64,000 nucleotides of DNA from Tenericutes bacterium ADurb.Bin239 (GTDB lineage: Bacteria; Bacillota_I; Bacilli_A; RFN20; CAG-826). The stretch is from assembly GCA_002069815.1 (NCBI GenBank), contig MWCB01000001.1, positions 1,786 to 65,785 of the forward strand. Direction: 5' to 3'. Made by a program: the position numbers and the translations under genes. The notes beneath the pieces were generated by a model that made no database searches, was not told where the DNA came from, and was given only the letters and a program-made list of their open reading frames with translations. Shown here in pieces: positions 4,978 through 60,044 of the stretch. Every line of letters begins with the position of its first letter. Position 1 is the stretch's first letter.

Positions 4978-5012
4978 AGCAACGGTTGTAAAAAATATAA
5001 AGGGGATAACCA

Positions 5013-8633: not shown

Positions 8634-8638
8634 AGAAT

Positions 8639-17041: not shown

Positions 17042-17117
17042 TGGCGGACCAGACGGGACTCGAACCCGCGATCTTCTGCGTGACAGGCAGACATGTTAAC
17101 CACTACACTACTGGTCC
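17042..17117 (-). tRNA. tRNA-Asp (anticodon GUC)
   Basis: The minus strand reads GGACCAGTAGTGTAGTGGTTAACATGTCTGCCTGTCACGCAGAAGATCGCGGGTTCGAGTCCCGTCTGGTCCGCCA, with anticodon loop CUGUCAC. Confidence 0.9.
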
Positions 17118-17884: not shown

Positions 17885-17930
17885 AGTATTTTTCTCCTTT
17901 CTTTAATTATACTATTAATAAATTAATTAA

Positions 17931-19781
17931 TTACTTAAAAAGTTTGTCTAATTCCTCGTTATCTTGTTCGATAAATTTAGCGCCAACGATAAAGGCCATT
18001 ACGTGGCGTCCTGTAACTGGTTTATGATCGGGAGTATATTTGCTTAGATATTCACCAATCTTATCAAAGAATGATTGATCTTTGGCTTTTTTAACATTTT
18101 CTTGATCAAGGACTTTAATGGTGGCATGCGATTCTCTTTCAACTGGAATATATTCAGTCCATGGGACGGGAACCATATGGACACTGCCATTCCCCGCCGT
18201 TTTAGCGACGTAATCGACCCGTTCAACGGTGGTAAAGCCGTGACTTGTAACACTAACGGTATCAAAGTCTTTTCCTTTTTGCACAATCTTCGTTTTCAAA
18301 ATGTTTTGGGTATGACTATCAGGATGACTAAAAGCACTACTTGGGAATTGGTTTACTGTTGATTCATGTTCATAGAATGAAAGGTGCGATTGATATTCTT
18401 TTTCATAAATAAATTCGTGCGGTTTATGTTGTTGATAGAGAGGAATTGCTAAAACAGGGGCAATATTGAAATAGAAACGATGGAGATAGTCATTATTGTA
18501 GTTAACAAATCTCCGCCTAATTTCTTGATTATCATAATGATAGTAATTTTGCGGATCACCGCTATAATCAAAAACTTGTGAGTGGTGGGACCGAATCATA
18601 TTTAAGTTTTTATTTTTAAAGAATTGGAAATTATCACCAAAACCAACGGTTTTATCTTTAATTAAGTCTAAAATTTCACTTTGACCTAACGCAGTAAATA
18701 GTAAGCGATATTCAAGTTCATGGTTTCGGTCATAAGCGTTAAAAAGCGCTTCAAATTCAGTATTGCCAATTGGTGTAAATTGTCGACCTTGTTTAAGCGC
18801 TTTTGCACTTATTTTTTCCATTTCTCGCTTTTCTTTTTCCACGAAACGGCGCAGACTCTTTTCAGTCCAATCAAGTGGTAATTGCGGATAACGCGTAAAC
18901 ACTAAATTAGGGGCCGCTTCATTTCCGTAAATAATATAAGTATCGTTATCATAATACGGACAAGGTTTATTGACCGTCGCGACTAATGTCTCACTTCTTG
19001 TTTCACGACGCGCCTTCCCATCAACGTAAACAGTGACCGTATAAGTAACAACGAGTGAACCGCGATATGTTTTAGTGCCCATAGTCATATTGAGCACGCG
19101 AGCAAGCAAGAACGGATTACCTTGAATTTCGCCTGATTGCACAAATAGCGCTGATTCATTATCGGGGGTAAAATCGCCTAACCCATATTTGCGCACTAAG
19201 TAGTCTAGTCGTCGTGCATCAAAATAAGGATCCATCGTTAGGATTGGAATTGTTTTTTCCACTAGCATGGGGGTCATATTCGCATCAAATAGAGCGTTTA
19301 ACGGATTAACTTGGGACCATGCGAGACTAACTTTTGCTTCACGTTGCTCAATAAGAGCGCTAAGTCTAGTTTGCGAATCACGAATGCGCGGTTTGATTTT
19401 TTTACGAACAACCACAATCGTTGTGATTGCTAGGGCTAATCCAAGAACAGCGATGATGACGCGCGCGAAGGTTGGCATTTTTAATAGGTCTTCGTTATTT
19501 GGTGTGGAAAGCACAAGGAAAGCAATAAAAATAATAAAACCAACGATCGTTAAAAATAAAAGGAAGGCCTGCAAAGCACGCGCTTTACCAAGAGCCTTTT
19601 CTTCATTAGCGATTTTGCCGTTTAACGTATTAATTTCTTTAACCGTAAAATCATTTTCTTCAACATTGATTGCACTTTTCTTTAGTAACTCGTCAAAAAA
19701 CTTATTTACATTTTCATTGTGTAAGCCTTTAAAGCGATCACGATATTCCTCAAGCGGATCAAATATTAGTTGTTTGCTCAT
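17931..19781 (-). CDS. Large 2-TM membrane protein, LemA partner (DUF3137-like C-terminal domain, tentative)
   Basis: 616 aa. N-terminal helical region, two TM helices (about residues 72-92 and 105-125) and a ~480 aa C-terminal domain. The segment NTEFEALFNAYDRNHELEYRLLFTALGQSEILDL resembles LemA-associated DUF3137 proteins (memory only). Confidence 0.55.
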   Translation of the reverse strand: MSKQLIFDPLEEYRDRFKGLHNENVNKFFDELLKKSAINVEENDFTVKEINTLNGKIANEEKALGKARALQAFLLFLTIVGFIIFIAFLVLSTPNNEDLLKMPTFARVIIAVLGLALAITTIVVVRKKIKPRIRDSQTRLSALIEQREAKVSLAWSQVNPLNALFDANMTPMLVEKTIPILTMDPYFDARRLDYLVRKYGLGDFTPDNESALFVQSGEIQGNPFLLARVLNMTMGTKTYRGSLVVTYTVTVYVDGKARRETRSETLVATVNKPCPYYDNDTYIIYGNEAAPNLVFTRYPQLPLDWTEKSLRRFVEKEKREMEKISAKALKQGRQFTPIGNTEFEALFNAYDRNHELEYRLLFTALGQSEILDLIKDKTVGFGDNFQFFKNKNLNMIRSHHSQVFDYSGDPQNYYHYDNQEIRRRFVNYNNDYLHRFYFNIAPVLAIPLYQQHKPHEFIYEKEYQSHLSFYEHESTVNQFPSSAFSHPDSHTQNILKTKIVQKGKDFDTVSVTSHGFTTVERVDYVAKTAGNGSVHMVPVPWTEYIPVERESHATIKVLDQENVKKAKDQSFFDKIGEYLSKYTPDHKPVTGRHVMAFIVGAKFIEQDNEELDKLFK

Positions 19782-29454: not shown

Positions 29455-32400
29455 AACGAAAGAAGACAAGATTGTATTTAGTCCCAAGCAAGAAGAAGCA
29501 CTCTCTTTGGCCAAGGAAAACATCCTTGTTTCGGCTGGGGCTGGCAGCGGTAAAACCGCGGTTTTAGTCGAACGTATTATTCGTATTTTAGTTGATAAAG
29601 AAGTTCCGCTTGATCGAATTCTCGTTTTAACTTTCACGAAAGCGGGAGCCCAAGAATTTAAAAACCGAATTAAGAAAGCATTACGGGAAAAACCTGAACA
29701 TGCTTCCAAAGCTTTCGCCGTTGATAACGCGGATATTACGACTTTCGATGCTTATGCTTTAAAGATTTTACGAAAGTATGGATATTATGCAGATTTAGAT
29801 AGCGATGTTGTTAATCTTGATCAAGGCTTAGAATTGGTGCTTATGCGTCGATATTTTGATGAAGTTATGGAGGATTATTATAAAGATCCGCCTTTAGCGT
29901 TTCGTTATTTTACCAAACGCTTTTTATCAAAAAAAGATGACAAATTATTTGAACTAATAACTAAATTTGATAGCCAACTAAAATTACAAATTGATGCCGA
30001 GACTTATTTGGAAAATTATATAGAGAAATTTTATTCGGACGCTAAGTTTAAAGCAATTTATAAAGAATTTAATGAATATGTTGTAAATACCATTCGAAAA
30101 GTAGCGCAGGCTATTAAAAATCTTAATTGTGAGCGACATTTGCAAAAATATGAAACATTCCTGAACAAATTTGGCCAAATCTTATCTTTTGATGATTATA
30201 TGAATGATTTAGATAGTTTCATTTACCAAAATCGTCCTGCTGGAACTCTTCGTGATTATCCCGAGGACCGACCATTTGCTAACATTATTAAAGAATATAT
30301 TGCCGACCTGAAAAGTGTTCAAGTTTATGAATCACGAGCGAAAATGTACGAGGTCTTTCAAGAAACGAAAGGACATGCGGCTTTTATCCTCGAAATATAT
30401 CGTAAAATTAGAGAACGATTAGCCGTTTTTAAAAATGAAAAAAGCGCTTATACCTTTAGTGATATCGCCTATAGCGCTTATAGACTTGTGTGTATTCCTG
30501 AAGTACAAAATGAATTAAGAAATCAATATGAATATATTTTGATTGATGAATATCAAGATACAAGTGATATTCAAGAAGAATTTATTCAAAAAATCGCTAA
30601 TAACAACGTTTATATGGTAGGTGACATTAAACAAAGTATCTATGCTTTTAGAAACGCTAATTGTGATATATTTCGCGAAAAATATGCTCGCTACCGCGCT
30701 GGAAAAGAAGGAAAGAAAGTTGACCTAAATGATAACTATCGAAGTCGTCCCGAAGTACTAAATGCAATTAACGCGATACTAAATGAGCTTATGACTGAAG
30801 ACTTTGGTAGTGCTAATTACAAGAAAGAACATCAAATTAATCAAGGCAATAAAAAGTACGATAAGTTTAAAGTTTCTAATCAAAAAGTTGGTCTTGAAGT
30901 TATTAATTATACAATTCCTAAAAAGAATAAAGATGAGCCGCTCGCCAATGAATCAATTCGTAAAAGTTTTGAATATGAAACGGAATATATTGTGAGCGAT
31001 ATTGAACGTAAGATTAAAGAAAAATACCAAGTTTTAGACAAAAATGGGTTGCGCGATGTAAGGTATGGTGACTTTACGATTCTTCTCGCCCAAGGCACAA
31101 AATTTGATGATATTGAACGCCGCTTTATTGACGCTGGTATTCCCGTCCATGTCCACAGAGATGAAAAGGCTAGTGAGAACAATATCAATATTGCGATTAA
31201 TAACTTATTACGAATCTATATTGCCTACACGAAAGATGATGAACCACGTGGCTATGAATTTCGTTTAGCAGTGGCAAGTTTCTTACGCGGCTTTGTTAAT
31301 AATTACACTGATCAAGCACTCTTTGATTTATTAAAAGATGAGAATTGGGACTTTACCAGTGATCCCGTTTTAATGCAAATTAAACATCTCGCTCAGACTA
31401 GTAATCATCTACCAGTTTCTAAAATAATTGATAAACTTGTCACTACTTTTGATATTTATGGTGCACTCTTTAATATTGGCGATTTAACCCAAAATAATAT
31501 GAAATTATCGAATAAACTTGAAGAATTAGAAAATTTAGCGGCGCTTGGTCTTGATTTAGAAGAGATTGTAAATTACTTTGGAGAACGGGAGCGAATTGGT
31601 GTTGAAGTTGAACTTAAGCGGGTCAAGTTAGAAAAAGAAGCAGTTAATATCATGACGATTCATAGTTCGAAAGGACTTGAATTTCCAATTGTATACTATA
31701 TGGATTTAGCAAATAATTTTTATCGGATGGAACGGCGACAAACTTTAACGATTTGTCCGAAGTATGGTTTTATACTGCCTGAGCCCGCTTTAAACATACA
31801 GAAAAGTTTTTTGGGTTATTTAGCGGACATTCGCTACAGCATTGAAACTCTTTCGGAGCGAATTCGTTTACTTTACGTTGCGCTGACAAGGGCAAAAGAA
31901 TTAATGGTTATTATTCATCCTCTTGAAGAAAAGATAGACGAATTAAAACCTTTCGAAAAAACGAATAGTCTTAAGAACCTACTTCTTCAATCTCCCTACT
32001 ATCAAAGTTTGATCAAAGAAGTTGAGATTGAATTCTTACCATTTAAAGATGTTGAGCCTAAAAAAGGTGACTTTGCTACCGAGTTTATAATTAAAAATCA
32101 TGGCTATATTTTTGAAAGCGCAAAATTAGATTTTGCTATTAATGAAAAAAATGATGTTGATGAAAAAGTATTGCAACGTGGTATCTTGCTGCATCGCTAT
32201 TTTGAAGAATATGATTTCGTAACAAAGAGTTTAGATTATATTATGGCCGCCAGTGACCGAGAACACATTCGCAATTTAGTTGCCCTACCTTTATTTGCGG
32301 GTGTTGAAAATGGCAATATTTATCGTGAATATGAATTCATTGATGAAAATACCAATAAAACATACGCGATTGATTGTTTTGTTGTCCTTGCCGATAAAAT

Positions 32401-32563
32401 TATTTTAATTGACCTAAAATTAGCGAATATTGATCATCCAAGTTACGACTTGCAAGTTGAAAATTACGCTAGGTATTTAAAGAAGGTGTTTAGGTTACCA
32501 GTGAATGCCTATCTGCTTAGCATTTTGCATCTAAAGTATAGAAAGGTGGAGATAAATGAATAA
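29432..32563 (+). CDS. addA: Helicase-nuclease complex subunit A (AddA/RexA, UvrD-type helicase plus RecB-type nuclease)
   Basis: 1043 aa. SF1 helicase motifs are AGAGSGKT, DEYQDT, NYRS, TIHSSKGLEF and LLYVALTRAK. C-terminal nuclease-like IDCFVV...ILIDLKL. Confidence 0.9.
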   Translation: MRMIMMNKTKEDKIVFSPKQEEALSLAKENILVSAGAGSGKTAVLVERIIRILVDKEVPLDRILVLTFTKAGAQEFKNRIKKALREKPEHASKAFAVDNADITTFDAYALKILRKYGYYADLDSDVVNLDQGLELVLMRRYFDEVMEDYYKDPPLAFRYFTKRFLSKKDDKLFELITKFDSQLKLQIDAETYLENYIEKFYSDAKFKAIYKEFNEYVVNTIRKVAQAIKNLNCERHLQKYETFLNKFGQILSFDDYMNDLDSFIYQNRPAGTLRDYPEDRPFANIIKEYIADLKSVQVYESRAKMYEVFQETKGHAAFILEIYRKIRERLAVFKNEKSAYTFSDIAYSAYRLVCIPEVQNELRNQYEYILIDEYQDTSDIQEEFIQKIANNNVYMVGDIKQSIYAFRNANCDIFREKYARYRAGKEGKKVDLNDNYRSRPEVLNAINAILNELMTEDFGSANYKKEHQINQGNKKYDKFKVSNQKVGLEVINYTIPKKNKDEPLANESIRKSFEYETEYIVSDIERKIKEKYQVLDKNGLRDVRYGDFTILLAQGTKFDDIERRFIDAGIPVHVHRDEKASENNINIAINNLLRIYIAYTKDDEPRGYEFRLAVASFLRGFVNNYTDQALFDLLKDENWDFTSDPVLMQIKHLAQTSNHLPVSKIIDKLVTTFDIYGALFNIGDLTQNNMKLSNKLEELENLAALGLDLEEIVNYFGERERIGVEVELKRVKLEKEAVNIMTIHSSKGLEFPIVYYMDLANNFYRMERRQTLTICPKYGFILPEPALNIQKSFLGYLADIRYSIETLSERIRLLYVALTRAKELMVIIHPLEEKIDELKPFEKTNSLKNLLLQSPYYQSLIKEVEIEFLPFKDVEPKKGDFATEFIIKNHGYIFESAKLDFAINEKNDVDEKVLQRGILLHRYFEEYDFVTKSLDYIMAASDREHIRNLVALPLFAGVENGNIYREYEFIDENTNKTYAIDCFVVLADKIILIDLKLANIDHPSYDLQVENYARYLKKVFRLPVNAYLLSILHLKYRKVEINE

Positions 32564-33644
32564 AAAGATTTATACACCGATACATAAGGAAGACTTTAGA
32601 CGACTTCTTCGTCATTACAATGTCCCAGAATCAATTGAAGATAATATTTTATACGATTTATACAGCGAATCAGTTGAATTACTTGTTGCTCACCATGAAA
32701 CGTTTGACAATATACCTTATGTTAACCTTGACCATCAACGCTTGATTCTCCATCTCATTCATGACTACAATTACCGCATGCGAAATTTAGAACTAAATAC
32801 GCGGCTGGAATTGTTAAAGAATGATTTATTTCATAATAAACTTATCAATGTGGTGGTTGATAAATATGGTAGTAGCGCGTTCTTTAAATATGATTCGGGG
32901 ACGTACTTGACCCCATTTTCAATGGAAATATCGACCATTAATGTTTACCTAAATTTCATTATGTTGAAATTACCGTTGCTCCCGCTTGAAAATAGGAGAA
33001 TGGAACTTTTTGCTGAATTACTCCGTAATGCCTTTTCCTATATACATACAATTACCGAATTGTTGGTACGCGGTTTTGAAAAAGAAGCGTTTGCTACGTG
33101 GCGGTCGCTTCATGAATTAGAAGCAACTTTACTTTTGATTCAAGATGATAAAATGTTAAAAGCTTATGAACAACACATCCTTTACTCTCTGGCCTTTAAC
33201 AAACTTGTGCCCAAAGCAGAATGTGATCGAATATTCGTCGAAATCAAAACTAAAATGAAAGAATTAAACTTAAAAAGCAAAGATACTAAAAGGTTTATTG
33301 AATATGGTTGGCTTTTAGCGCATCAAGCCTTTGATATGAATATTCACAAGTTCAATTTTCGTGATGGTGTTCAAACTATTGCTAAGCTTGAAGATAAGCG
33401 TGAAGTATATAAGCTTGCTAGCGAAGTTACCCATAGTTCACCAGTCGCGCTTTTCACTAATCGTCGCTATTTTTTGGCTATGGTACTTGATAATCTTTAC
33501 ACGACATTTTTGCGAATTGAGGCCCTTTTTGCCGAGTTATATGTACAAAATGTTGAAAAATCAGAAGTTGATTTTTATAAAATTGCACGCGATATCTACC
33601 TTGAAGATATCAAACTAGTTCAGAGCCGAATACCAAGAAGATAA
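32556..33644 (+). CDS. Hypothetical all-alpha protein, translationally coupled to addA; paralog of 48861-49934
   Basis: 362 aa. The start ATG lies inside the addA stop region (8-nt overlap). Shares FxxWRSLxExxxTLLLI and YxxASxxxH blocks with the 357 aa protein at 48861-49934. Possibly DUF5677-like (memory only). Confidence 0.6.
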   Translation: MNKKIYTPIHKEDFRRLLRHYNVPESIEDNILYDLYSESVELLVAHHETFDNIPYVNLDHQRLILHLIHDYNYRMRNLELNTRLELLKNDLFHNKLINVVVDKYGSSAFFKYDSGTYLTPFSMEISTINVYLNFIMLKLPLLPLENRRMELFAELLRNAFSYIHTITELLVRGFEKEAFATWRSLHELEATLLLIQDDKMLKAYEQHILYSLAFNKLVPKAECDRIFVEIKTKMKELNLKSKDTKRFIEYGWLLAHQAFDMNIHKFNFRDGVQTIAKLEDKREVYKLASEVTHSSPVALFTNRRYFLAMVLDNLYTTFLRIEALFAELYVQNVEKSEVDFYKIARDIYLEDIKLVQSRIPRR

Positions 33645-48414: not shown

Positions 48415-48864
48415 TTAGAACTTAATTTTGGGAAATCTTCGATGAAGTTCATCTTTATCCACGAGATTAGTGCACCGTTCAAGCATCGCCTCGTATACAA
48501 GTTTTTTAGGGTCATGCGCTAAATAACGTTCATCCCCAATCCGGGTGACGAAGCGCATACTTAATTTTTTACTAGAATACACTTCGTCAATATAAATGAT
48601 GTCATCAAATTTGTAATAGAGAATATTGCCACCTTTGTGGTGAACGATTTCGTGCTTTGTAAGTTCGTAATAACTATTCTTATAACCAAACACTAAGTAA
48701 ATAGCGGTAACAACACTCCATCCGATGATGACGAGATAATGATTTAAGGTTGGCGGAAACTTAATTCCGACGATAAGGTAAAAAATAATACTCATTAACA
48801 AGTAGATTGGTAGGTAGATGAGGAGGAGTCCTTTAAAACTAGTGTATATTTTTTTATTTTTCAT
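48415..48864 (-). CDS. Small 2-TM membrane protein with a C-terminal bacterial PH-like (bPH/YdbS-YdbT-like) domain, tentative
   Basis: 149 aa with two adjacent TM helices, then YYELTKHEIVHHKGGNILYYKFDDIIYID, a beta-rich PH-like pattern. ATGA overlap with the upstream 357 aa gene. Confidence 0.55.
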   Translation of the reverse strand: MKNKKIYTSFKGLLLIYLPIYLLMSIIFYLIVGIKFPPTLNHYLVIIGWSVVTAIYLVFGYKNSYYELTKHEIVHHKGGNILYYKFDDIIYIDEVYSSKKLSMRFVTRIGDERYLAHDPKKLVYEAMLERCTNLVDKDELHRRFPKIKF

Positions 48865-49934
48865 GTTGTTTGGATTTTCGCACTAAAATCGATAAAACGC
48901 CCATTAAAGTTTTTGACTTCGGTGCGCACTCCTTGTTCTAATTTTTTGGCATCCGCGAGGTCATTAGTGAATAAGTCACTAATATAGACACGGACCGCTT
49001 CATAAAGTTTGAAATATAAAGTTAGTAAGTATTTTTCAAAATCAATTTCAAGTTTTAAGTCGTCGGGACTTATTAAGTATTCATGAACGAAAAGAGAGGC
49101 AAAGGCGTAATGCGGATATAAGTCGCCCATATTGACCAGTTCAAGAAGTGTCTTCAAGGTGTAGTCTTCATCTTTTTTAATAAGTTCACCTGCCCAACCA
49201 ATGCGTTCGGCGATATAATCAGGTACTCCCCTTTTTCCTAAATGCTGTCTTGTTTCTTTTGATTTATCTTTTTGGACTTGGCGACTAGCGTCTTTGACCT
49301 TGACCCGCATAAGCGCTAAGTTTCGTCTTTCACTAAATTTACCAACGAGATGCTCGTTTTTGTATAAGATTAATAAAGTAGTAGTCGTTTCGAGTAAACT
49401 GCGCCAAATAATAAAGGAGTCATTATAAAACTCGCGCTCAAGGAGCATTATGCCCGACACTAATTCTTGGAAGAAGCGGTCCGTTAAGTTATAGAGTGTT
49501 TTTTGTGGATCTTTAAACTTACTAGCGTCAACTCCCTTAAACTTTTGATAGCGGCGATCAATTAAATTTTCAAAATTAAAGATAATCGGATCAACGTATT
49601 CATCACGCGTAAATGTATGATTAGGATTTTGTTTGGCTTCCTCAGCCTTAATTACGTCTTTAATAATCTTATCGATATGTTGACTATTTTTAAAATATGT
49701 TCGCTGATACTCAATACTATTGTTTTTAATCGTGCGACTATGCCTTTTAATAATGATCTCCGCGAAAACTTCAAAGGACCGAGCGCGAATCCCGAAGGTC
49801 TTCCGATATTCAGGATAAGCATTTTTAATGGCGGTTCTAAAATAGTTAAGCTTTTCTTTCGTATTTGGCGAAATATGGATATCATCACTTAAAAGGCTAG
49901 CAACTGTGTTTTGACTGAGTTCATAATTTGCCAT
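48861..49934 (-). CDS. Hypothetical all-alpha protein, paralog of 32556-33644
   Basis: 357 aa. FYNDSFIIWRSLLETTTTLLILY and YAFASLFVHEY blocks match FEKEAFATWRSLHELEATLLLIQ and YKLASEVTHSS of the addA-coupled protein. Divergent from the SMC-like operon. Confidence 0.6.
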   Translation of the reverse strand: MANYELSQNTVASLLSDDIHISPNTKEKLNYFRTAIKNAYPEYRKTFGIRARSFEVFAEIIIKRHSRTIKNNSIEYQRTYFKNSQHIDKIIKDVIKAEEAKQNPNHTFTRDEYVDPIIFNFENLIDRRYQKFKGVDASKFKDPQKTLYNLTDRFFQELVSGIMLLEREFYNDSFIIWRSLLETTTTLLILYKNEHLVGKFSERRNLALMRVKVKDASRQVQKDKSKETRQHLGKRGVPDYIAERIGWAGELIKKDEDYTLKTLLELVNMGDLYPHYAFASLFVHEYLISPDDLKLEIDFEKYLLTLYFKLYEAVRVYISDLFTNDLADAKKLEQGVRTEVKNFNGRFIDFSAKIQTT

Positions 49935-50060
49935 AAGTTACCGCCTTTCTTTTTAAAATATAAATAAAACTAAATATTTCACTTTTATTATACAAGTTTG
50001 ATACCATTTCCCTTTTTTATATGATAATATAAAACATATAAATGAAGGAGATTATTTTTT

Positions 50061-51476
50061 TTGAGCCTATTTACAATCATTCCCAGTAACTTCTTCTCGA
50101 TCCTCGCGAGCAAAAATAAAGAAATATATGCCGAAGCGCTTCTTTTATTGCACCATTCTATTGAAGATAATGAATTGCTCATTAAGAAGCGTGATTTTAC
50201 TCGTAACCTGCGTGATCGTCTTAACGAGTTAGCGCTTAATGTTGATATGGAAGCGGAAGAAGAAGGAGATGACGATGAAATCGTTAATTATAGCGATAAA
50301 GCGGCTTTTATCGTACGTCGGTTAGAAGAGTGTGGCTGGATTGACGTCGAAGTTAATCCTGACAACTTTGAAGAATATATTGCCCTTCCAAGTTATAGTA
50401 TTAATGTTATCTCGCTTTTAAACGAGTTAGTTAAGGAAAGCACCGCTGAATACGTATCACTTGTTCATGCGACTTATAGTGAACTTAAATTAGAAGATGA
50501 AATGCGGGATGAATTTATGTACGCTACCTTAGTGCGGGCTTTTGAAAATACCAAACGCCTTAATGTTGAATTAATTATGCTGGCCCATAGTATTCGTATT
50601 TTCCAAAATAGACTTGGCAAAGTCTTCAGTACGAATAATATTTTAAGTGACTATTTCGATATATACAAAACACGTGTTAGTGACCGCTATTATCACCCGT
50701 TAAAGACGTTTGATAGTGTTGCTAAATTTAAACGTCCTATTTTACAAATATTACAAAAATGGCTCTATGAAGAAGATATTCGTCAGCAACTAGTGGCGCA
50801 GTCATTAATGTGGAGCCGCAATAAAAACGCGAAAGAAGCTGAAGCTGACATTATTAATAAAATTAACTACATCACTGATATGTATGAACGAGTTAATGAG
50901 ACGATTGGGCAAATTGACCAAAAGCACTACGAATATACGAAAGCGAGTGCTTCAAAGATTCTTTATTTAAATGCGGCGGATAAATCAATTAAAGGACACT
51001 TAGATTTTATCTTCAAGACTTATGCCGAAACTTTAAGTAAAGGCGAAAGTGTGGCGCCAATCTTAAATGGTATTAATCAGACGATAACATTTGCGCAACA
51101 TGGTTATGTTACCCCTGATTCATTAACGCTACCCATCATCCGGCAACTGCGCGGTGAGAGCATTCCAATGTCACTTACCGACTTTGATGATGTCCGCGAT
51201 ATGTTAATGCAAGGCTTTCTTGATGAAACGAGTAATCAATTTTCTAATGATGCCATCTTTGATTTTATGGATTTCGCCTTTGGCGATGAAAGTGAAGTGC
51301 ATATCAGTGATATTCCTTTGCCTAGCTTTGATGCCTTCTTACTTTTAATCCTCGCCACGATTAAAACAAACGATGAAGAATGTTTTTATATCGTTGAAAC
51401 TGATCCTGGGAATGTGAGTAGCCATGGATACCGTTTACCAAATTTACGATTTGTACGAAAGGAGTTAACCTTATAA
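50061..51476 (+). CDS. jetA: JetA/MksF-like (kleisin-type) subunit of an SMC-like complex
   Basis: 471 aa with a TTG start 10 nt after an AAGGAG RBS. Mostly helical with an acidic insert. The call rests on size and on being first in a 471/212/1124 aa operon with kleisin-KITE-SMC order. Confidence 0.5.
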   Translation: MSLFTIIPSNFFSILASKNKEIYAEALLLLHHSIEDNELLIKKRDFTRNLRDRLNELALNVDMEAEEEGDDDEIVNYSDKAAFIVRRLEECGWIDVEVNPDNFEEYIALPSYSINVISLLNELVKESTAEYVSLVHATYSELKLEDEMRDEFMYATLVRAFENTKRLNVELIMLAHSIRIFQNRLGKVFSTNNILSDYFDIYKTRVSDRYYHPLKTFDSVAKFKRPILQILQKWLYEEDIRQQLVAQSLMWSRNKNAKEAEADIINKINYITDMYERVNETIGQIDQKHYEYTKASASKILYLNAADKSIKGHLDFIFKTYAETLSKGESVAPILNGINQTITFAQHGYVTPDSLTLPIIRQLRGESIPMSLTDFDDVRDMLMQGFLDETSNQFSNDAIFDFMDFAFGDESEVHISDIPLPSFDAFLLLILATIKTNDEECFYIVETDPGNVSSHGYRLPNLRFVRKELTL

Positions 51477-51477
51477 T

Positions 51478-52116
51478 ATGTTTGAAGAAACCTTTTTACA
51501 ATTAACACGAGCTGATCAAGAAGCATTTGCAAGAGCGATTAATCAACTCTTGCTTACGAGTTTTATTGTTCGTGATGATTTTGATCGCCGGGAAAAAACA
51601 ATTAAAATTAACCCCACCTATCGCTTTATCGAACGTCATTTTGACTTAATTAATGACTATTTAAGTTATGCGGGATGGCGGGTTGATAAAGATTTAATTC
51701 TTGGGGTTTTTAGTCTTGTTAATGAATATGACCATAATCGATTACGATTTGACCGCGAAGTTAGTCTCGTTCTTTTTGTCTTACGTTTAATTTATGAAGA
51801 AGAACGGAAAGAAGGAGGGCATGTAGGTGATTCGGTTTACCTCACAACGCCGCTTGTTATGAAAGTAATGCATGACCGCGGGATTGGTTTCCCAAATAAA
51901 CGTTTAAGTGGACGCTTAATTGGCCGCTGTTTGAAGGAAATTGCGTCACACAATATCATTGCAAGAGTATCAGGAAGTTATGATGAAGGTAACGTGACAT
52001 TTTACTTACTACCATCAATTACTTTTGCCGTTGATAATGATAAAATCGTTGCAATTAGCGAAGCCTTAGAAAAACTTGCCTTACGTGATGCTGAGGCGCA
52101 AGGTGGTGAATTATGA
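51478..52116 (+). CDS. jetB: JetB/MksE-like (KITE, DUF4194-like) subunit
   Basis: 212 aa, starting 1 nt after the upstream stop. Size and pattern (FIERHFDLINDYLSYAGWRVDKDLILGVFSL, then LSLVLFVLRLIYEEE) fit MukE/MksE/JetB-type tandem winged-helix proteins. Confidence 0.55.
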   Translation: MFEETFLQLTRADQEAFARAINQLLLTSFIVRDDFDRREKTIKINPTYRFIERHFDLINDYLSYAGWRVDKDLILGVFSLVNEYDHNRLRFDREVSLVLFVLRLIYEEERKEGGHVGDSVYLTTPLVMKVMHDRGIGFPNKRLSGRLIGRCLKEIASHNIIARVSGSYDEGNVTFYLLPSITFAVDNDKIVAISEALEKLALRDAEAQGGEL

Positions 52117-55100
52117 AACTATTAAAGACTGTTAAAATCATTAATTGGCACTATTTTTGGAATCAGACGATGAATATTGAAAAGATCGTCTTCTTAACGG
52201 GGGTAAACGCTAGTGGAAAGTCCACGTTAATTGACGCCATGCAAGTCGTTCTCCTCGGTGATACATCGGGTCGCTACTTTAATAAAGCTGCGGCGGAAAA
52301 ATCAAACCGTACGCTCCGCGGCTATCTTCGCGGGGAATTAGGCGACTCACTTGAAGGTGGTTTCCACTATTTACGGAATGGTCGCTTTACTTCTTACATC
52401 GTTTTAGAGTTTTATGATGATGTGCATGACGAATACTTTAATTTAGGAATCGTGTTTGATGTGTTTGATGATGGAGGGGTCGATCACCGTTTCTTTATGC
52501 TTGATGCCCCGATGCCGGCGAATGAATTTATCGTTGATAACGTTCCGCTTGAATATAAAGATTTAAACCAATATTTACAAACCCACTATCCGAATAAATT
52601 TAAGTTTTATGACACAAATCGACAATATCAAGATGCTTTAAAACGTAAACTTGGTAATTTAAAGGATAAATACTTCAGTTTGCTGAAGAAAGCCGTCAGT
52701 TTCTCGCCGATTACTGATATTACAACCTTTATTACTGAATATGTGACTGAATCACAAGGAGCAATTGATATTGCGCCAATGCAAGAGAATATTCTTCAAT
52801 ACAAAAAGTTAGAAGATGAAGCCGCTCTTATGCGCTATAAAGTGGAACGCTTACATGAAATTGCTAAAAACTATGAAGTATATAAAGGACATAAGGAGCA
52901 ACTTACTCTTTTTGAATATGTTTTAGAAAAAGCAACCTTACAAAATGACTTAAATAGATTAGCGACTTATGATAATCAATATCTTGGTTACCAAAAACGC
53001 TTAACCGATATTGAAAGTGAACTAGCCGACTTAGATGTTGATTTAGCCGAACTCAATAAACGACGGGTGAAATTAATTCAAGATAGTTCGACCAATGATA
53101 CATATCGAATAACCGATGAAATTAATGAACATAAAAAAGTCGCCGAAGAAAAAATTAGAAGTCTTAAGTTTCTTAATATGCAAGTGCGAAGCGACTTAGA
53201 AAACTATGTTTTAACCTTTGACCGGCTCGCTAATGAAGTCTTAGAAAAGGTTACTGCCATGGATGAAAAACGGTTAAAGAAGGACGGACTTTTCGCTCGT
53301 GAAGAACTACTAGAAAGCGCCGAAAACATCGTAAAAGAAAATCATCGGATTACGGCGGTCCTTAACAAAGATATTAATGAATTAAGCGAAGCAATGCTTA
53401 ATGACTGGCGCAATGCGCAAGCGAAGTTTAAACAAAACTTAGGGGCTTTCACTTTGAGTCTTGGACGCTTAATTAATGACTACCAAGTAAATGAAGCCAT
53501 TCTTAAACAACAAGAAATTGATTTACGCGGTGGCGGTAAACCCTATGAATATAATCTCCTGCAAGTAAGAAATGAACTTCAAAATAAATTATCAGCGAAA
53601 CATGGCTATAAAGTGGAAGTGAGTATCTTCAGTGACTTAATTGATATTCGCGATCAAAAATGGACCAATGCGATTGAAGGTTACCTTGGTGGTCAACGCT
53701 TCCATCTCTTTGTCGAAGGTCAATATTTCCTAGATGCTTATGACATTTTGAAAGATTTATTACAACAATATAATTATTACGGCACAAATTTGGTTGATGT
53801 CGATCAAATTATTGAACGGCGGTTTAGCGCTATGCCTAATTCCATCGCCGAAGAAATTCTTACGGACCATATCGGCGCCCGGGCTTACGCTGATTTCTTA
53901 CTAGGAAGATTACAAAAGTGTAATACTATTCAAGAAGCGCGAAATAGTGGAAACGGGATTACCCCAGACACTGATTTATATCGTAACTTCACGTTTGGGC
54001 GTATTAATCCTCGTCTCTACCAACAAAAATACATCGGTCGTCAGATTGAAGAAGCGGATATTAATGCGAAAAAAGCTGAACTAGCGGCGCACGGTGCAAC
54101 CCTTCGTTCTTATCAAGAACTCTTGCAAGTGCTCTTACCGGGAAATGATGTTGAAATTGTAAACACGAATGAAATCGCTGCCCTTGGTAGCCAAGTTAAA
54201 CGGATTCAAGAATTACCAAGTCTTGAACAAAGCATTGAATTTTATGAAGAAGAACTCGGTCGGCACGACTTAACTTTGATTGAAGGTATCCATCGCCGCA
54301 TTAACTTAGTCGAAACTGATATTAAAGGGATTGAAAATCAAAAAGCAGGTCTCGTCGAAGAACGCGGGAAGATCTCAACGAACATGCAAATTTTAAAGAA
54401 TGAACGGATGCCCGAAACAAAACAAATTATTCAAGAACGACAAACTAAGCTTGATGAAAGTTATGATGCCTTCTTTATCAGTGATGTCGCCGAGCCTTTC
54501 TTCCAAAATCTAATTGCCGAAGGAAAGAATCCGCTTGATATTAACGCTGAGTACCGGCAAGCATTTAGTAACGCTCTCTATCTTTCTAATAGTGTATTTA
54601 ACCAAGTAAAGAAATTACGGAAAGAGTATGTCGTTGATTATCGCTTAACTTATGACGTTGAAACCGAGCATAACGATGATTTTGCGATGGAATTAAATGA
54701 TCTTTTAGAAGTTAAACTTCCCGAATATGAAGAAAAGATTAATGATGCTTATCGTAAAGCCGTCAAACAATTTAAAGATGACTTCATCTCGAAATTACGG
54801 AGCGCGATTGAAACAGTGGAAGATCAAATTGCCGAACTTAACGAAGCGCTTAGTATGTCAACATTTGGGGAAGACTCGTATCAATTTACCGTTAAACCAA
54901 GTACTATTTATCGGGTTTATTACGATATGATTAAAGATGATTTATTACTGAAAGTAACGGATGACGATAGCGAATTCTTCCAAAAATATGATGATGTTAT
55001 GAAGGATTTATTTGCGCAAATCGTGTTAGCAGGTGATGGCGATAAAAATGCAGCGGTACTCGCTAATGTTGAAAAATTCACCGACTATCGGAACTACTTA

Positions 55101-55487
55101 GAGTTTGACCTAATTGTCCGTAATAAAGATGGTCGTGAACAACGACTTTCACGCGTGCTAATGAAGAAGTCTGGTGGTGAAACCCAAACTCCATTCTACA
55201 TTAGTGTCCTTGCTAGTTTTGCTTATCTCTACCGCGTTAATGAACCCGGCGAACTTAGTAATAGTGCCCGTCTAATTATTTTTGACGAAGCCTTTAGTAA
55301 GATGGATAGTGGGCGGATTAAAGAATCAATTCGCTTATTACGCCGCTTTGGTTTACAAGCAATTATTAGTGCCCCAAGTGATAAAGTCGCGGATATTAGT
55401 CCGCTAGTTGATGAAACGCTAGTTGTCTTACGGGGTAAGAATCACAGTCATGTTCAACTATTTGCCCGCGAAGAGGATTTAACATAA
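52113..55487 (+). CDS. jetC: JetC/MksB-like SMC-family ATPase
   Basis: 1124 aa. N-terminal IINWHYF...LTGVNASGKSTLIDAM (Walker A), about 750 aa of coiled-coil-like sequence, and C-terminal KKSGGETQTPFYISVLASF (signature) plus LIIFDEAFSKMD (Walker B/D-loop). Confidence 0.7.
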   Translation: MKLLKTVKIINWHYFWNQTMNIEKIVFLTGVNASGKSTLIDAMQVVLLGDTSGRYFNKAAAEKSNRTLRGYLRGELGDSLEGGFHYLRNGRFTSYIVLEFYDDVHDEYFNLGIVFDVFDDGGVDHRFFMLDAPMPANEFIVDNVPLEYKDLNQYLQTHYPNKFKFYDTNRQYQDALKRKLGNLKDKYFSLLKKAVSFSPITDITTFITEYVTESQGAIDIAPMQENILQYKKLEDEAALMRYKVERLHEIAKNYEVYKGHKEQLTLFEYVLEKATLQNDLNRLATYDNQYLGYQKRLTDIESELADLDVDLAELNKRRVKLIQDSSTNDTYRITDEINEHKKVAEEKIRSLKFLNMQVRSDLENYVLTFDRLANEVLEKVTAMDEKRLKKDGLFAREELLESAENIVKENHRITAVLNKDINELSEAMLNDWRNAQAKFKQNLGAFTLSLGRLINDYQVNEAILKQQEIDLRGGGKPYEYNLLQVRNELQNKLSAKHGYKVEVSIFSDLIDIRDQKWTNAIEGYLGGQRFHLFVEGQYFLDAYDILKDLLQQYNYYGTNLVDVDQIIERRFSAMPNSIAEEILTDHIGARAYADFLLGRLQKCNTIQEARNSGNGITPDTDLYRNFTFGRINPRLYQQKYIGRQIEEADINAKKAELAAHGATLRSYQELLQVLLPGNDVEIVNTNEIAALGSQVKRIQELPSLEQSIEFYEEELGRHDLTLIEGIHRRINLVETDIKGIENQKAGLVEERGKISTNMQILKNERMPETKQIIQERQTKLDESYDAFFISDVAEPFFQNLIAEGKNPLDINAEYRQAFSNALYLSNSVFNQVKKLRKEYVVDYRLTYDVETEHNDDFAMELNDLLEVKLPEYEEKINDAYRKAVKQFKDDFISKLRSAIETVEDQIAELNEALSMSTFGEDSYQFTVKPSTIYRVYYDMIKDDLLLKVTDDDSEFFQKYDDVMKDLFAQIVLAGDGDKNAAVLANVEKFTDYRNYLEFDLIVRNKDGREQRLSRVLMKKSGGETQTPFYISVLASFAYLYRVNEPGELSNSARLIIFDEAFSKMDSGRIKESIRLLRRFGLQAIISAPSDKVADISPLVDETLVVLRGKNHSHVQLFAREEDLT

Positions 55488-55506
55488 GGCTAACGAAAGG
55501 AGAAGT

Positions 55507-56364
55507 ATGGAATTAAAGTTTATTGACGGAATAAGAGCCTATCATGTGCGCTTATCCCGGCGCTATACGCTGGAAGCTATTATCTCCATCTTTGTTTTGT
55601 TCGCCCTAAGCCTAACCCTTATCGTCCTTGAATTATTTACTGAAATAGATTTAAAAGTTCCTTTTTATCGTCTTTTTATTTGGATTACACTTTATGTAGG
55701 ACTCTTTTTATTCATCGTAATATATTTCCCGCTTCGTTATCAAAAGTTACAAAATGCCCTTAACGCCGAATTTTTTAAACGGGCAAGTGCCGTAAAAATT
55801 GATTTAATTCCTAATCCCTTGGGGGGCACAAAGTTTGATTACAACTCGCTTTTAAAAGCGGCAGGTATAAGCGTGCCCCTAACGGGAATAAAAACGATTG
55901 CGCGCTATGAATTTACGAAACGATTATTTCATGTCTTATATTTTAATGATGGGGAAAAAGAGAGTGCTATTATTCATTTACCGATGAAAGAATCACCGTA
56001 CTATTTACAAATTAATAATGGTAATTTTGCTCCGCCTGAACAATATGAAGGGACCCCGATTGTAAAGATTGCGTATGTATCGCCTTACAATCTTCAATAT
56101 TACGCCACAAGTAGCGCCACAAATGCTAAAATATATTTAAGAAAAGAAATTGAAACGCGCTTTGTTAAATTTTTAAAAATTTACGATGCGAAATATCAAT
56201 ATGTGGCGACCTACACTGATGAATTCTTAAAAGTGGAAGGTCTATCATCACCTTTGCGACTTCGACTAGGGGGTCGCTATAATAATGAACGTTACGCTAG
56301 ACGCTTAGCAAGTTTACGCTTGTTACAATCGCTTATGTTAGCGATGCTTGAAAGGGGGAAGTAA
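55507..56364 (+). CDS. 2-TM membrane protein of unknown function, occupying the fourth position of the SMC-like operon
   Basis: 285 aa with a GGAG RBS 19 nt after the jetC-like stop. Two TM helices (about residues 25-45 and 55-78) are followed by a ~200 aa soluble domain. No Toprim or nuclease motif seen. Confidence 0.6.
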   Translation: MELKFIDGIRAYHVRLSRRYTLEAIISIFVLFALSLTLIVLELFTEIDLKVPFYRLFIWITLYVGLFLFIVIYFPLRYQKLQNALNAEFFKRASAVKIDLIPNPLGGTKFDYNSLLKAAGISVPLTGIKTIARYEFTKRLFHVLYFNDGEKESAIIHLPMKESPYYLQINNGNFAPPEQYEGTPIVKIAYVSPYNLQYYATSSATNAKIYLRKEIETRFVKFLKIYDAKYQYVATYTDEFLKVEGLSSPLRLRLGGRYNNERYARRLASLRLLQSLMLAMLERGK

Positions 56365-56365: not shown

Positions 56366-57496
56366 ATGGCAAAAGAGTTAATCGCAATGATTTTAGCGGG
56401 AGGAAAAGGTACGCGTCTCTACGAGCTGACACGAAAAGACGCTAAACCTGCCGTCCACTTCGGCGGGAAGTATCGTATTATTGACTATGCTTTAAGTAAC
56501 TGTGCTCATAGCGGGCTTGATACGGTTGGAGTCTTAGCGCAATATGAATCAATTAGTCTTAGTCGCTATATTGGTAATGGCGAAAAATGGGGATTAAACG
56601 GGGTTCGCAGTAATACCGTCACTATCCCACCCCGTCAAACTGAAAGTGGCAGTAACTGGTTTATTGGAACGGCCGACGCGATTTACCAAAACCTGGAATT
56701 TATTGATTCTTATGATCCAGAAAACGTTCTTATTTTAAGTGGTGACCATATTTATCGGATGGATTATTCAAAGATGCTAGAAACACACTTACATAATAAT
56801 GCTGATTTAACGATTGCGGTTATTGATGTCACCCTAGAAGAAGCGAAGCGTTTTGGCATTCTAAGCGCTGATGAAAATGATCGGATTACCGAGTTTGTGG
56901 AAAAACCGCCCAAACCGAAATCAACATTAGCGAGTATGGGTATTTATATTTTTAACTATAAAGTACTAAGACAAGCACTAGTTAATGACGCTAAAGATGA
57001 AAAAAGTGATCATGACTTTGGTAAAAATATTATTCCAACTATGTTAGCGAAAAAGAAACGACTTTTTGTCCACCGCTTTAAAGGATATTGGAAAGATGTG
57101 GGTACGGTTGATTCTTTATGGGAAGCTAATATGGATTTAATCGAGATGATGGATGAAGATTTCTACGCTGGTGATAAACATTACTTTCGACTTTTTAGCG
57201 AAGACACGAACAGTGTTCCCCAATATATTGGCAAAAAAGCGAAAGTGACCAATAGTGTGGTTAACCAAGGCGCTATTATTTTAGGAACAGTGGACGGTTC
57301 AATTATTTCAAACGAAGTGTTTATTGAAGTGGGCGCAGTGGTTAAAGATAGTGTAATCATGCCTGGTGTTACCGTGGGACGTAATGCCTTTATTAATAAG
57401 GCGATTGTCGCCAATGATTTAATAGTTCCCGATGATATGCAGATAAATGTTGCGGGTGAGAAAGTATTACTCGTCCATGAAGGAGTAGTGAAATGA
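56366..57496 (+). CDS. glgC: Glucose-1-phosphate adenylyltransferase, catalytic subunit
   Basis: Start re-picked at MAKELIAMILAGGKGTRL after a GGGGGAAG RBS, giving 376 aa. Motifs are GGKGTRL, GTADA and a C-terminal left-handed beta-helix. Confidence 0.9.
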   Translation: MAKELIAMILAGGKGTRLYELTRKDAKPAVHFGGKYRIIDYALSNCAHSGLDTVGVLAQYESISLSRYIGNGEKWGLNGVRSNTVTIPPRQTESGSNWFIGTADAIYQNLEFIDSYDPENVLILSGDHIYRMDYSKMLETHLHNNADLTIAVIDVTLEEAKRFGILSADENDRITEFVEKPPKPKSTLASMGIYIFNYKVLRQALVNDAKDEKSDHDFGKNIIPTMLAKKKRLFVHRFKGYWKDVGTVDSLWEANMDLIEMMDEDFYAGDKHYFRLFSEDTNSVPQYIGKKAKVTNSVVNQGAIILGTVDGSIISNEVFIEVGAVVKDSVIMPGVTVGRNAFINKAIVANDLIVPDDMQINVAGEKVLLVHEGVVK

Positions 57497-58608
57497 AAGT
57501 TTTAGCGTATTTAAATTTACACCATTCGCCACGACTTGGACCCCTGACTGTTAGTCGTTCAAGTGCGGTTGTTAGTTTCCTTGGTCGGTATGCGATTATG
57601 GACTTTATGTTGAGTAACTTCAGTAACTCAGGGTTTGACCGCGTCGCTACTTTAGTTGATAATCATCCTGATTCCGTCTTGAAACATTTTGGTAGTCGTA
57701 ATACATTTAATATTAACACTAAGCTTGGTTTAGAAATAATCGCTTATAACGAAAGTGGATCAAAAGCTGGTCCACGCTATAACACGGATGTTGCTAATAT
57801 TCTCTTTAATAGTTGGATTTTAGAGCAAACCGATCCTGATTATGTTGTGGTCGCTCCTAGTTATTTTGTGTTACCACTTGATTTTCGGCCAATCTTAAAA
57901 CAACATATGGCGAATAAATCAAAAGTAACCGCGGTCTATCAGCGTGTTTACAATGCACGTAATGAATACATTGGTCGTTCTATTTTTGATTTGAACACAG
58001 ATGGTCATGTTATTAATATTTCCCGAAACAAAGGAGAGAAGGATGAACGAAATATCGGCTTAGAAACATATATTTTCTCACGCGATGCTTTTGAACTTTT
58101 AATTAAAGATGCCCAAAAAATTAGTTCATTTTATACCCTTAGTGATATTGTTGCCTATCACGCCCTTAAAGACTTACGGGTTGATACTTATGAATATCTT
58201 GGTTATATGCGCTGTTTTGATAGTTACCAACATTACTACGATTATAGTTTTGAACTTCTTAACTATCGAATCCGGCGACAACTCTTTTTACCGCATTGGC
58301 CGATTTACACCGTAACCCATGATACGCCCCCCGCGAAGTATGAAGCAACCGCTGATGTTAATAATGCTTTTATCGCTAATGGTTCGTTAATTTGTGGGAC
58401 CATTCGGAATGCAATTATTTCGCGGAACGTTAAAGTTGAAGAAGGCGCAGTTGTGGAAAATTCGATTATCTTTACTGATTCCATTGTTCGCCGCAATAAA
58501 ATAATTAGTCACGCTATTATCGATAAGCAAGCCGAAGTCGCGGTTGCCGCTGAATTAGCGGGAACCCCTGATGATATCATTTATGTACGGAAAGGAGATC
58601 GAGTGTAA
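57493..58608 (+). CDS. glgD: Glucose-1-phosphate adenylyltransferase, GlgD regulatory subunit
   Basis: 371 aa. A GlgC paralog that lacks the GGxGxRL motif, overlaps glgC (ATGA), and sits in the Firmicute glgC-glgD-glgA order. Confidence 0.8.
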   Translation: MKVLAYLNLHHSPRLGPLTVSRSSAVVSFLGRYAIMDFMLSNFSNSGFDRVATLVDNHPDSVLKHFGSRNTFNINTKLGLEIIAYNESGSKAGPRYNTDVANILFNSWILEQTDPDYVVVAPSYFVLPLDFRPILKQHMANKSKVTAVYQRVYNARNEYIGRSIFDLNTDGHVINISRNKGEKDERNIGLETYIFSRDAFELLIKDAQKISSFYTLSDIVAYHALKDLRVDTYEYLGYMRCFDSYQHYYDYSFELLNYRIRRQLFLPHWPIYTVTHDTPPAKYEATADVNNAFIANGSLICGTIRNAIISRNVKVEEGAVVENSIIFTDSIVRRNKIISHAIIDKQAEVAVAAELAGTPDDIIYVRKGDRV

Positions 58609-60044
58609 TGAAAATACTAATGGTGGCAAGTGAAAGTAGTCCACTTGCGAAAACAGGTGGTTTAGCCGATGTCGTCTATGCTCTAAGTAAAGAGTTAGCA
58701 ATCCTTGGTGAAGAAGTAAGTATTGTCATGCCTTTTTACGCGAATATTCGGCGCAGTCCTGATCAAGAAATTCGTTTTTTAGCTAATGTTCAAGTTCCAC
58801 TTGGATGGCGCTTCCAAAATGCAAAGGTCTATAAAACCTTCATTGATGGTATTACCTTCTATTTAATTGAAAATGAATACTATTTTGGTCGTGAAGGATT
58901 TTATGGATATGATGATGATACCGAACGATTTGCCTTCTTTAGTGTGGCGGTCCGTAATATGCTCCAAACTCTTAAAATAAAACCTGATGTCCTGCATATT
59001 CATGATTATCACGGGGGTATGATTCCGGCCTTGATTAAAATTCAAAACGCGAAAATGCGTTTCTTTAGTAAGATGAAATTTGTGGTTACGATTCATAACC
59101 CGGCTTTCCAAGGCGAATTCCATCCTGATTTACTTCCTGACTTTTATGATATTCGCAAAGAATACTTTGAAGATGGGACGCTTCGTTACCGCGATAAAGT
59201 TAACGCTTTAAAAGCGGCCATTGTGTTTGCCGATAAGATTAATACCGTTAGTCCCACCCACGCGCAAGAATTATTAACCCCTGAAGGTTCAAAAGGGTTA
59301 GACGGTATTTTAAAATTACGGAAAGATGATTTTGTGGGGATCCTTAACGGAATCGATTACGATGAATTTAATCCGTCCACGGATAAACACATTCCGTTTC
59401 GGTATGGGAAAACAAAACCGGGGGTCAAAGCTAAAAACAAAGTTAAACTTTTTGAAGAACTCCGTATTAAGGGAGATGAGAATACACCGCTATTTGCCAT
59501 GGTAACGCGATTAACCTGGCAAAAAGGCATTGATTTAGTCATTCCCGCGATTGTTGAAGTACTGGAGCAGGGCGCTAATGTTGTGGTTGTGGGTAGTGGC
59601 GAATATGGGTATGAGCAAGCGCTTGAACAACTTCGGGACCGTTATCCTGATAATATGGCGATCTACATTGGCTATAACAATCCCTTAGCCCATCGTGTGT
59701 ATGCGGCTAGCGATTTCTTCTTTATGCCAAGCCTTTTTGAACCGTGCGGGATCGGCCAAATGATTGCGCAACGTTATGGTTCCCTTCCCATTGTCCGCAC
59801 TACCGGTGGACTTAAGGATACAGTGATAGGGTATGATGGCACTAATGCTGATGTCGCTGATGGCTTTATCTTTGATAATTATGATGAGTACTGGATGAAA
59901 CTTACGACCAATTATGCCCTTGAACAATATAAGAACCCCGAAGTCTTTAAAGAACTTCGGAAAAATGCAATGAATAAAAATAACGACTGGGCCGAAGCTG
60001 GAAAAAGGTACCTCGCTCTCTATGAAAGTATTGTAAATCCATAA
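58608..60044 (+). CDS. glgA: Glycogen synthase (ADP-glucose type)
   Basis: 478 aa with N-terminal SESSPLAKTGGLADV and the C-terminal GT5 motif EPCGIGQM. Confidence 0.95.
   Translation: MKILMVASESSPLAKTGGLADVVYALSKELAILGEEVSIVMPFYANIRRSPDQEIRFLANVQVPLGWRFQNAKVYKTFIDGITFYLIENEYYFGREGFYGYDDDTERFAFFSVAVRNMLQTLKIKPDVLHIHDYHGGMIPALIKIQNAKMRFFSKMKFVVTIHNPAFQGEFHPDLLPDFYDIRKEYFEDGTLRYRDKVNALKAAIVFADKINTVSPTHAQELLTPEGSKGLDGILKLRKDDFVGILNGIDYDEFNPSTDKHIPFRYGKTKPGVKAKNKVKLFEELRIKGDENTPLFAMVTRLTWQKGIDLVIPAIVEVLEQGANVVVVGSGEYGYEQALEQLRDRYPDNMAIYIGYNNPLAHRVYAASDFFFMPSLFEPCGIGQMIAQRYGSLPIVRTTGGLKDTVIGYDGTNADVADGFIFDNYDEYWMKLTTNYALEQYKNPEVFKELRKNAMNKNNDWAEAGKRYLALYESIVNP

Follow-up and report, generated by a model that had tools for sequence, protein, structure and literature searches.

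The stretch of DNA analysed here, a 64,000-nucleotide (nt) window from Tenericutes bacterium ADurb.Bin239 (contig MWCB01000001.1), carries three closely packed genes, jetA, jetB and jetC, whose products are assigned by profile matches to the kleisin, KITE and structural maintenance of chromosomes (SMC) components of type I Wadjet systems. These genes are followed, in the same orientation, by a gene for a small membrane protein with two transmembrane (TM) helices and by the glycogen synthesis genes glgC, glgD and glgA. The five elements on which the argument turns are the following:

50061-51476, plus strand: jetA, kleisin, MksF/MukF-like, 471 amino acids (aa), TTG start
51478-52116, plus strand: jetB, KITE protein, MksE/MukE-like, 212 aa, beginning after a 1-nt gap from jetA
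52113-55487, plus strand: jetC, SMC-like ATPase, MksB/MukB-like, 1124 aa, overlapping jetB by 4 nt (ATGA)
55507-56364, plus strand: gene for the two-TM membrane protein, 285 aa, 19 nt past the jetC stop, with an AAAGGAG ribosome-binding site (RBS)
56366-60044, plus strand: glgC-glgD-glgA, with Pfam NTP_transferase and Glyco_transf_5 domains, co-oriented and 3' of the 285-aa gene

The coordinates and junctions of the first four genes (TTG start, 1-nt gap, 4-nt overlap and 19-nt gap containing an RBS) had been read in a first-pass annotation of this DNA and agree with the open reading frame (ORF) map. A GGAG lies about 10 nt 5' of the jetA TTG start. The same annotation had described an operon that runs into glgCDA without a visible terminator; in line with this, the intergenic spaces downstream of 50061, as far as the 3' end of glgC, contain no terminator-like site on the plus strand. 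The earliest one on that strand, at 57365-57388, falls within glgC, close to its 3' end. The start of glgC is most likely the ATG at 56366, 1 nt past the stop of the 285-aa gene, with the glgC RBS inside the 3' end of that gene; glgD, glgA, leuS and coaX follow. It is thus probable that glgCDA is transcribed in the same unit as jetABC. A T-box 5' of leuS, sought as a marker of the operon end, gave no Rfam match.

The kleisin-KITE-SMC order proposed in the first-pass annotation is borne out by full-length matches to Pfam and PADLOC profiles. JetA is matched by PF18982 (E = 3.5e-89, profile positions 2-434 of 434) and, over its full length, by the PADLOC model JetA1 (PDLC00449, E = 1.7e-126), and its identity ranges from 43 to 92% across 38 species; JetB is matched by PF13835 (DUF4194, E = 2.2e-16) and by JetB1 (PDLC00502, E = 6.3e-65); JetC is matched by JetC1 (PDLC00519) with 1099 bits over residues 1-1121, and contains AAA_29 and SbcC_Walker_B domains. 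The profile searches that had been proposed for the first two ORFs therefore place both in the kleisin and KITE Jet families, and with matches so far above chance the three genes are assigned to the kleisin-KITE-SMC set of the type I Wadjet family. Only the expectation that JetA would be a DUF3375 protein was mistaken, type I JetA corresponding instead to PF18982/DUF5716. The third protein had been described as an SMC-type ATPase, and the motifs that identify it as such were located in JetC: a Walker A GVNASGKST (aa 30-38), a signature SGGE (1020) and a Walker B/D-loop IIFDEAFSKMD (1055-1065). None of these motifs varies among 41 species. By sequence, the closest solved structure to JetC is that of E. 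coli GF4-3 JetC (8as8/8q72/9qxt).

The locus shares its protein families, gene order and protein size class with the type I Wadjet JetABCD systems of E. coli GF4-3 (JET, PDB 8as8/8q72) and P. aeruginosa PA14. In JetABCD, a plasmid that has been totally extruded is left with bent DNA, which is cut by the nuclease JetD docked at the larynx of JetC (10.1101/2023.11.03.565488). The operon of the window differs from these systems in having JetA, JetB and JetC and no JetD/MksG Toprim nuclease, in occupying a chromosomal core locus rather than a defence island, and in evolving at a housekeeping-like rate; its JetC is only ~20-26% identical to those of characterised or plasmid-borne Wadjet systems. 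None of the 10 JetD-sized ORFs of the window (ORFs of 350-455 aa included) was recognised as JetD in a PADLOC scan, and a tblastn search with a canonical JetD taken from the jetABCD operon of a Cohnella plasmid (L055), a single query of limited sensitivity, gave no match at E <= 10 in the window or in the related loci L001-L054. In the 43 species loci described below and in the contigs L059-L064, jetC is never followed by a JetD-sized gene, and no JetD match lies within ~10 kb of jetABC in the 43 species. When 75 clusters of unknown ORFs and 32 window ORFs were compared with PADLOC models in alignment mode, no strong JetD match appeared among the best 25 families listed, a result that bears on strong matches only. 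The absence of a JetD/MksG nuclease noted in the first reading of the sequence consequently extends from the operon to the whole window and to the ~10-kb flanks in 43 related species. The 357-aa DUF5677 protein and the 149-aa protein encoded divergently upstream, as well as the other ORFs of 350-455 aa, were considered as a hidden JetD and rejected, having no PADLOC match. The JetD docking site was also approached through E. coli JetC F919, which aligns with V948 of the window protein; this column varies within the clade and the alignment is too uncertain, and the comparison was not used.

The distribution of the operon was obtained from a JetC scan of GTDB species representatives; 43 loci were recovered, their JetC sharing 44-93% identity with that of the window. 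Across this clade the order rsgA-rpe-(rpmB)-orf149 / jetABC / glgCDA / leuS-coaX is fixed. After jetA-jetB-jetC comes either glgC directly or a two-TM ORF (~285-316 aa) and then glucan genes, one locus (L033) being rearranged downstream of jetC. The three jetABC ORFs are intact and full length in the 43 species, and further metagenomic contigs, one of 1.08 Mb, repeat the jetABC pattern without a JetD-sized gene. The genomes of the clade are apparently ~1 Mb (contigs of 0.93 and 1.08 Mb). JetC forms more than 1000 clusters at 90% identity; the best 120 matches are all at least 48% identical and all within the clade, a JetD-containing sister group not having been reached among them.

The rates of JetA, JetB and JetC are comparable to that of LeuS. 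Between the window and the nearest other species (L012), the nonsynonymous divergence (dN) is 0.059 for JetA, 0.056 for JetB and 0.051 for JetC, compared with 0.079 for LeuS, 0.062 for RsgA and 0.072 for GlgC, and the ratio to synonymous divergence (dN/dS) is ~0.04 for JetABC, a value that is rough in absolute terms with dS saturated (1.1-3). The identity of JetC to the window protein follows that of LeuS (r = 0.976, n = 22) and that of GlgC (r = 0.96, n = 41). Because the core locus is fixed, the rates are LeuS-like, the correlation with LeuS is close (r = 0.98) and the ATPase motifs are invariant, jetABC shows the pattern of a gene set inherited vertically under functional constraint, not that of a mobile defence island or a decaying remnant. 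That jetABC is the residue of a defence system in decay after loss of its nuclease, as the missing JetD could suggest, is in fact exceedingly improbable when three ORFs are intact in 43 species with a dN/dS of ~0.04 and invariant catalytic motifs.

Taking these data together, we favour with moderate confidence the view that jetABC is a nuclease-free, vertically inherited chromosome-organising complex rather than a plasmid killer, because it evolves like a vertically inherited housekeeping gene set. The locus encodes a complete type I Wadjet motor (JetA kleisin, JetB KITE and JetC SMC ATPase) minus the JetD/MksG Toprim nuclease. According to this model, and by homology to MukBEF and to the JetABC complexes of E. 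coli and P. aeruginosa, JetABC would assemble into a kleisin-KITE-SMC dimer of motors carrying out ATP-driven loop extrusion; without JetD, cleavage of fully extruded plasmids could not occur, and in this uncultured, small-genome clade of Bacilli the complex would serve as a domesticated chromosome organiser of the MksBEF/MukBEF kind. The first-pass annotation had offered a nuclease-less condensin as one of two readings, and the fixed core locus, the tRNA-synthetase-like rates and the invariant ATPase motifs are all consistent with it. Several points weigh against it. The evolutionary pattern is the sole ground for the chromosomal role; at deep divergence JetC (~45-50% identity) outpaces LeuS (~65%); and the saturation of dS affects the ratios given above. 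All the loci were retrieved through JetC, so that they do not give the fraction of clade genomes that have no operon. The alignment-mode PADLOC listings, which end at 25 families and are dominated by kinase models, are of limited sensitivity, as is the single JetD query, and the JetD search took in the window and the flanks of the loci, so that a trans-encoded nuclease, JetD or otherwise, may exist elsewhere in the genomes.

This last point is also what an anti-plasmid role would build on. It may be proposed that jetABC still acts against plasmids or other mobile genetic elements, either by recognising small circular DNA through its total extrusion, with a nuclease supplied in trans (a remote JetD or an unrelated enzyme) doing the cutting, or by a non-cutting action such as compaction, silencing or mis-segregation; Smc5/6, which acts on viral DNA without cutting it, is a model for the latter. 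Two observations would suit such a role: by their profile scores the proteins are genuine type I Wadjet components, and the variable hotspot just upstream carries a DpnII restriction-modification system in three loci (L001/L003/L004). However, JetD is operonic in the described Wadjet systems and was not found within ~10 kb of jetABC in 43 species, defence systems are typically patchy and mobile whereas jetABC has a fixed locus and LeuS-like rates, and retention in ~1 Mb genomes argues for a core role. An anti-plasmid function is for these reasons considered unlikely.

If jetABC is indeed a chromosome organiser, a further step may be contemplated, namely that in an order-level clade of Bacilli with genomes of ~1 Mb the place of Smc-ScpAB has been taken by a JetABC of Wadjet descent, now the sole chromosomal condensin. 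We put this forward tentatively. In the annotated parts of the window and of the locus flanks, to which the search was limited, no SMC, ScpA or ScpB was identified. Such a takeover might parallel, in Firmicutes, the takeover by MukBEF in gamma-proteobacteria, here in a complex that has kept the sequence features of type I Wadjet; this comparison is just as speculative as the replacement itself. In a weaker variant, the two-TM protein described below, which is DUF3137-like, would in some lineages connect the complex with the membrane. Should Smc-ScpAB be missing, the clade would offer a clean natural experiment in the conversion of a plasmid-sensing loop extruder into a condensin; should it be present, jetABC would be one more nuclease-free Mks-type complex, of a known kind.

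The gene that follows jetC had been described as encoding two TM helices behind its own RBS, and a hydropathy scan places the helices at about residues 20-49 and 51-78. The 285-aa protein of the window has no match in Pfam (0 families at E <= 1), PADLOC or NCBIfam, and a profile search recovered only 11 relatives among 1.8 billion representatives; this close family (group A) comprises 8-11 clusters, all of them 3' of jetC. Genes of similar length and two-TM architecture are found at the same position in other species of the clade, as group B in L020/L048/L051; a group C occupies this position in L021/L022/L027/L045/L046/L052, and its members pass the threshold of PF11335 (DUF3137) with 30.8-34.5 bits against a cut-off of 26.1. 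Profile comparison with hhalign links A to B (E = 3.7e-4) and B to C (E = 0.003), while the value for A and C is not significant (E = 0.05); the alignment of the groups is collinear, with motifs in common. The AlphaFold2 model of the 285-aa protein consists of a TM hairpin, a beta-rich domain and a C-terminal helix, and its predicted local distance difference test score (pLDDT) rose from 68 to 85.8 once group C sequences were added. Foldseek searches of PDB with either model gave no significant match to a solved fold and no nuclease, and a profile search against PDB sequences also gave no match; weak YbjN-like and type III secretion system chaperone-like Foldseek matches (TM-scores of 0.36-0.38) were not used. 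Both termini and the soluble domain are predicted to be cytoplasmic, the latter by charge count.

From these links the 285-aa protein is probably a diverged DUF3137 (PF11335) membrane protein. It resembles the group C proteins in its two-TM N-terminal hairpin, its beta-rich cytoplasmic domain of ~200 aa, its C-terminal helix, its length and its genomic position; it contrasts with them in that the window protein itself has no Pfam match and the direct profile-profile comparison falls short of significance. This want of statistical support for direct homology to DUF3137 counts against the assignment.

Whatever its family, the gene behaves differently from jetABC. It is absent in ~22 of the 43 species, where the gap between jetC and glgC measures 4-200 nt; in five of these loci (L030, L053, L039, L042 and L036) only 4-15 nt separate the jetC stop from the glgC start, so that SMC and glycogen synthesis genes appear to form one operon, a pairing that is unexplained. 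In one locus (L023) the two-TM gene is internally deleted and in another (L024) only a relic persists. Its presence is scattered on the JetC tree, which implies several losses. Between the window and L012 its dN is 0.23 and its dN/dS ~0.21, a rate 4-5 times that of JetABC. The gap to the downstream glucan gene ranges from -26 to +18 nt and is mostly 1-2 nt, and the gap after jetC is 8-56 nt; judged by this spacing, translation of the 285-aa gene is coupled to that of the glucan gene after it and not to that of jetC. Because about half of the species lack it and two show it in decay, and because it evolves fast, is coupled to glgC and has no nuclease-like fold, the gene is a fast-evolving, dispensable, optional passenger outside the core machine and no replacement effector.

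The first-pass annotation had raised, as its second reading, the possibility that this membrane protein had replaced JetD as the effector. Such an effector might act, for instance, by damaging the membrane or by tethering captured plasmids to it. The gene does occupy the fourth position with its own RBS, every member examined adjoins jetC only, and a soluble domain in the cytoplasm would be suitably placed. Co-occurrence with the ATPase, on which that reading leaned, is however found in one direction only, since about half of the species with an equally conserved jetABC lack the gene. The deletion and the relic, the high dN, the tighter coupling to the glucan gene than to jetC, the failure to recognise a nuclease, pore or toxin fold, and the fact that the group C counterparts are ordinary DUF3137 proteins all tell against an effector, and we regard this explanation as highly improbable.

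The spacing of the 285-aa gene could alternatively mean that it belongs to the alpha-glucan (glgCDA) unit, for instance as a membrane factor for glycogen metabolism. In nearly all species that carry it, the gene either overlaps the glgC start or ends 1-4 nt before it, and contains the RBS of glgC. Moreover, in L021, L061 and L062 glgCDA is replaced by an alpha-amylase cluster, which in L021 (14372-20091) and L061 (8935-14648) comprises an alpha-amylase-family gene and three ORFs without Pfam matches (~359, 331 and 680 aa). This cluster occupies the usual place of glgCDA, following jetC and the DUF3137-like gene, and in all three loci the retained gene is no more than 6 nt from, or overlaps, the first gene of the cluster. 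On the other hand, many species carry glgCDA without the gene, none was seen beside glg genes away from jetC in what is a JetC-centred sampling, and DUF3137 has no known link to glycogen. Membership of the glucan unit is accordingly a possibility, although a doubtful one, next to the optional-passenger interpretation preferred here. L021 had also been considered as a case that might separate the two-TM gene from glycogen genes; this is void, the downstream genes being another alpha-glucan cluster.

Loss of MksG/JetD across the Wadjet group has been described by Burmann et al. 2025 (PMC7617805), whose Data S1 contains many FEB operons, including some from Anaeroplasma, from 'Tenericutes' metagenome-assembled genomes and from JAFLUZ010000005.1. 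The last corresponds to locus L022 of our set, with a JetC 56% identical to that of the window, and is given in the same Data S1 as an 'FEB' operon without G. The first-pass annotation had spoken of an undescribed architecture, which is too strong for the nuclease-less part in view of that publication (PMC7617805). A chromosome-organising role is established for MksBEF and MukBEF (PMC10586767, PMC7617805). P. aeruginosa MksBEF, E. coli MukBEF and the FEB operons are, like the operon of the window, kleisin-KITE-SMC operons without MksG/JetD; the latter differs from MksBEF and MukBEF in its Firmicute lineage, in belonging to the type I JetABC sequence class rather than to that of Muk, and in being joined to glgCDA. 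Two marks of a nuclease-free Wadjet-group condensin are found here, an operon without MksG/JetD and stable vertical inheritance under strong purifying selection.

A second Firmicute case is found on the 251-kb replicon of Agathobacter rectalis (NZ_CP143948.1, L056), where jetA-jetB-jetC at 2759-8351 has no JetD annotated 3' of jetC and is followed by a gamma carbonic anhydrase and a major facilitator superfamily transporter. Compared with the window, its JetC is 22% identical, its context is unrelated and it is carried on a secondary replicon, which suggests more than one origin of nuclease-free JetABC within Firmicutes. An evolutionary link is proposed between Wadjet and MukBEF, in which a defence SMC complex may turn into a chromosome organiser once its nuclease is lost. 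To our knowledge few such domestications have been studied (MukBEF and P. aeruginosa MksBEF), and we know of no previous description of clade-wide vertical inheritance at housekeeping rates, of the fusion to glgCDA or of the variable DUF3137-like gene. The present locus adds a whole Firmicute clade in which a recognisably type I JetABC bears the signature of core genes and is joined to a glycogen synthesis operon. For annotation, it follows that JetABC without JetD should not be called a defence system, nor a gene 3' of jetC taken for an effector by default.

Upstream of jetA, the window contains a promoter-like element and two divergent genes:

49998-50025, plus strand: promoter-like TTGATA-16-TATGAT from a consensus scan, a pattern match only, inside the 126-nt divergent intergenic region 5' of jetA
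48861-49934, minus strand: DUF5677 protein, 357 aa (PF18928, E = 1.1e-10), divergent from jetA
48415-48864, minus strand: orf149, two-TM protein of 149 aa with a soluble tail of ~90 aa, divergent, 5' of jetA

The DUF5677 gene is confined to the subclade of the window, whereas most species of the clade retain orf149 (25-86% identity) in divergent orientation 5' of jetA, a relative in L064 showing a weak bPH_7 match. The region 5' of orf149/DUF5677 is a variable hotspot, as seen when L001/L003/L004 (1-2925) are compared with L002 and L005: the first three contain the DpnII-type restriction-modification system with extra methylases, other loci a helix-turn-helix or haloacid dehalogenase (HAD) gene, and L009 CotH/esterase/metallophosphatase genes. 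The upstream DUF5677 protein has a distant paralogue in the window (PF18928; 32556-33644, plus strand; BLASTP between the two weak, E = 5e-4), located directly 3' of an AddB/AddA-like nuclease-helicase pair (27136-32563), so that both DUF5677 genes, at 32556-33644 and at 48861-49934 on the minus strand, adjoin DNA-handling machines.

Elsewhere in the window, a plus-strand cluster at 5013-11723, which is conserved in a JGI contig (L058), comprises, in this order, a 1206-aa ORF without a Pfam family, the gene of a metallophosphatase resembling purple acid phosphatases (638 aa) and that of a protein with a Big-like domain (393 aa). On the minus strand, a LemA gene (220 aa) adjoins the gene of a 616-aa protein without a Pfam match (17222-19781), and a cyclic di-AMP riboswitch (RF00379, 80 bits; 15793-15922) precedes a 448-aa gene (14422-15768). 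Three tRNA genes are located at 11847-11917, 16962-17032 and 17045-17117 (minus strand), and two tandem paralogues of the MgtE magnesium transporter (454 and 455 aa) are encoded at 2090-4818, also on the minus strand.

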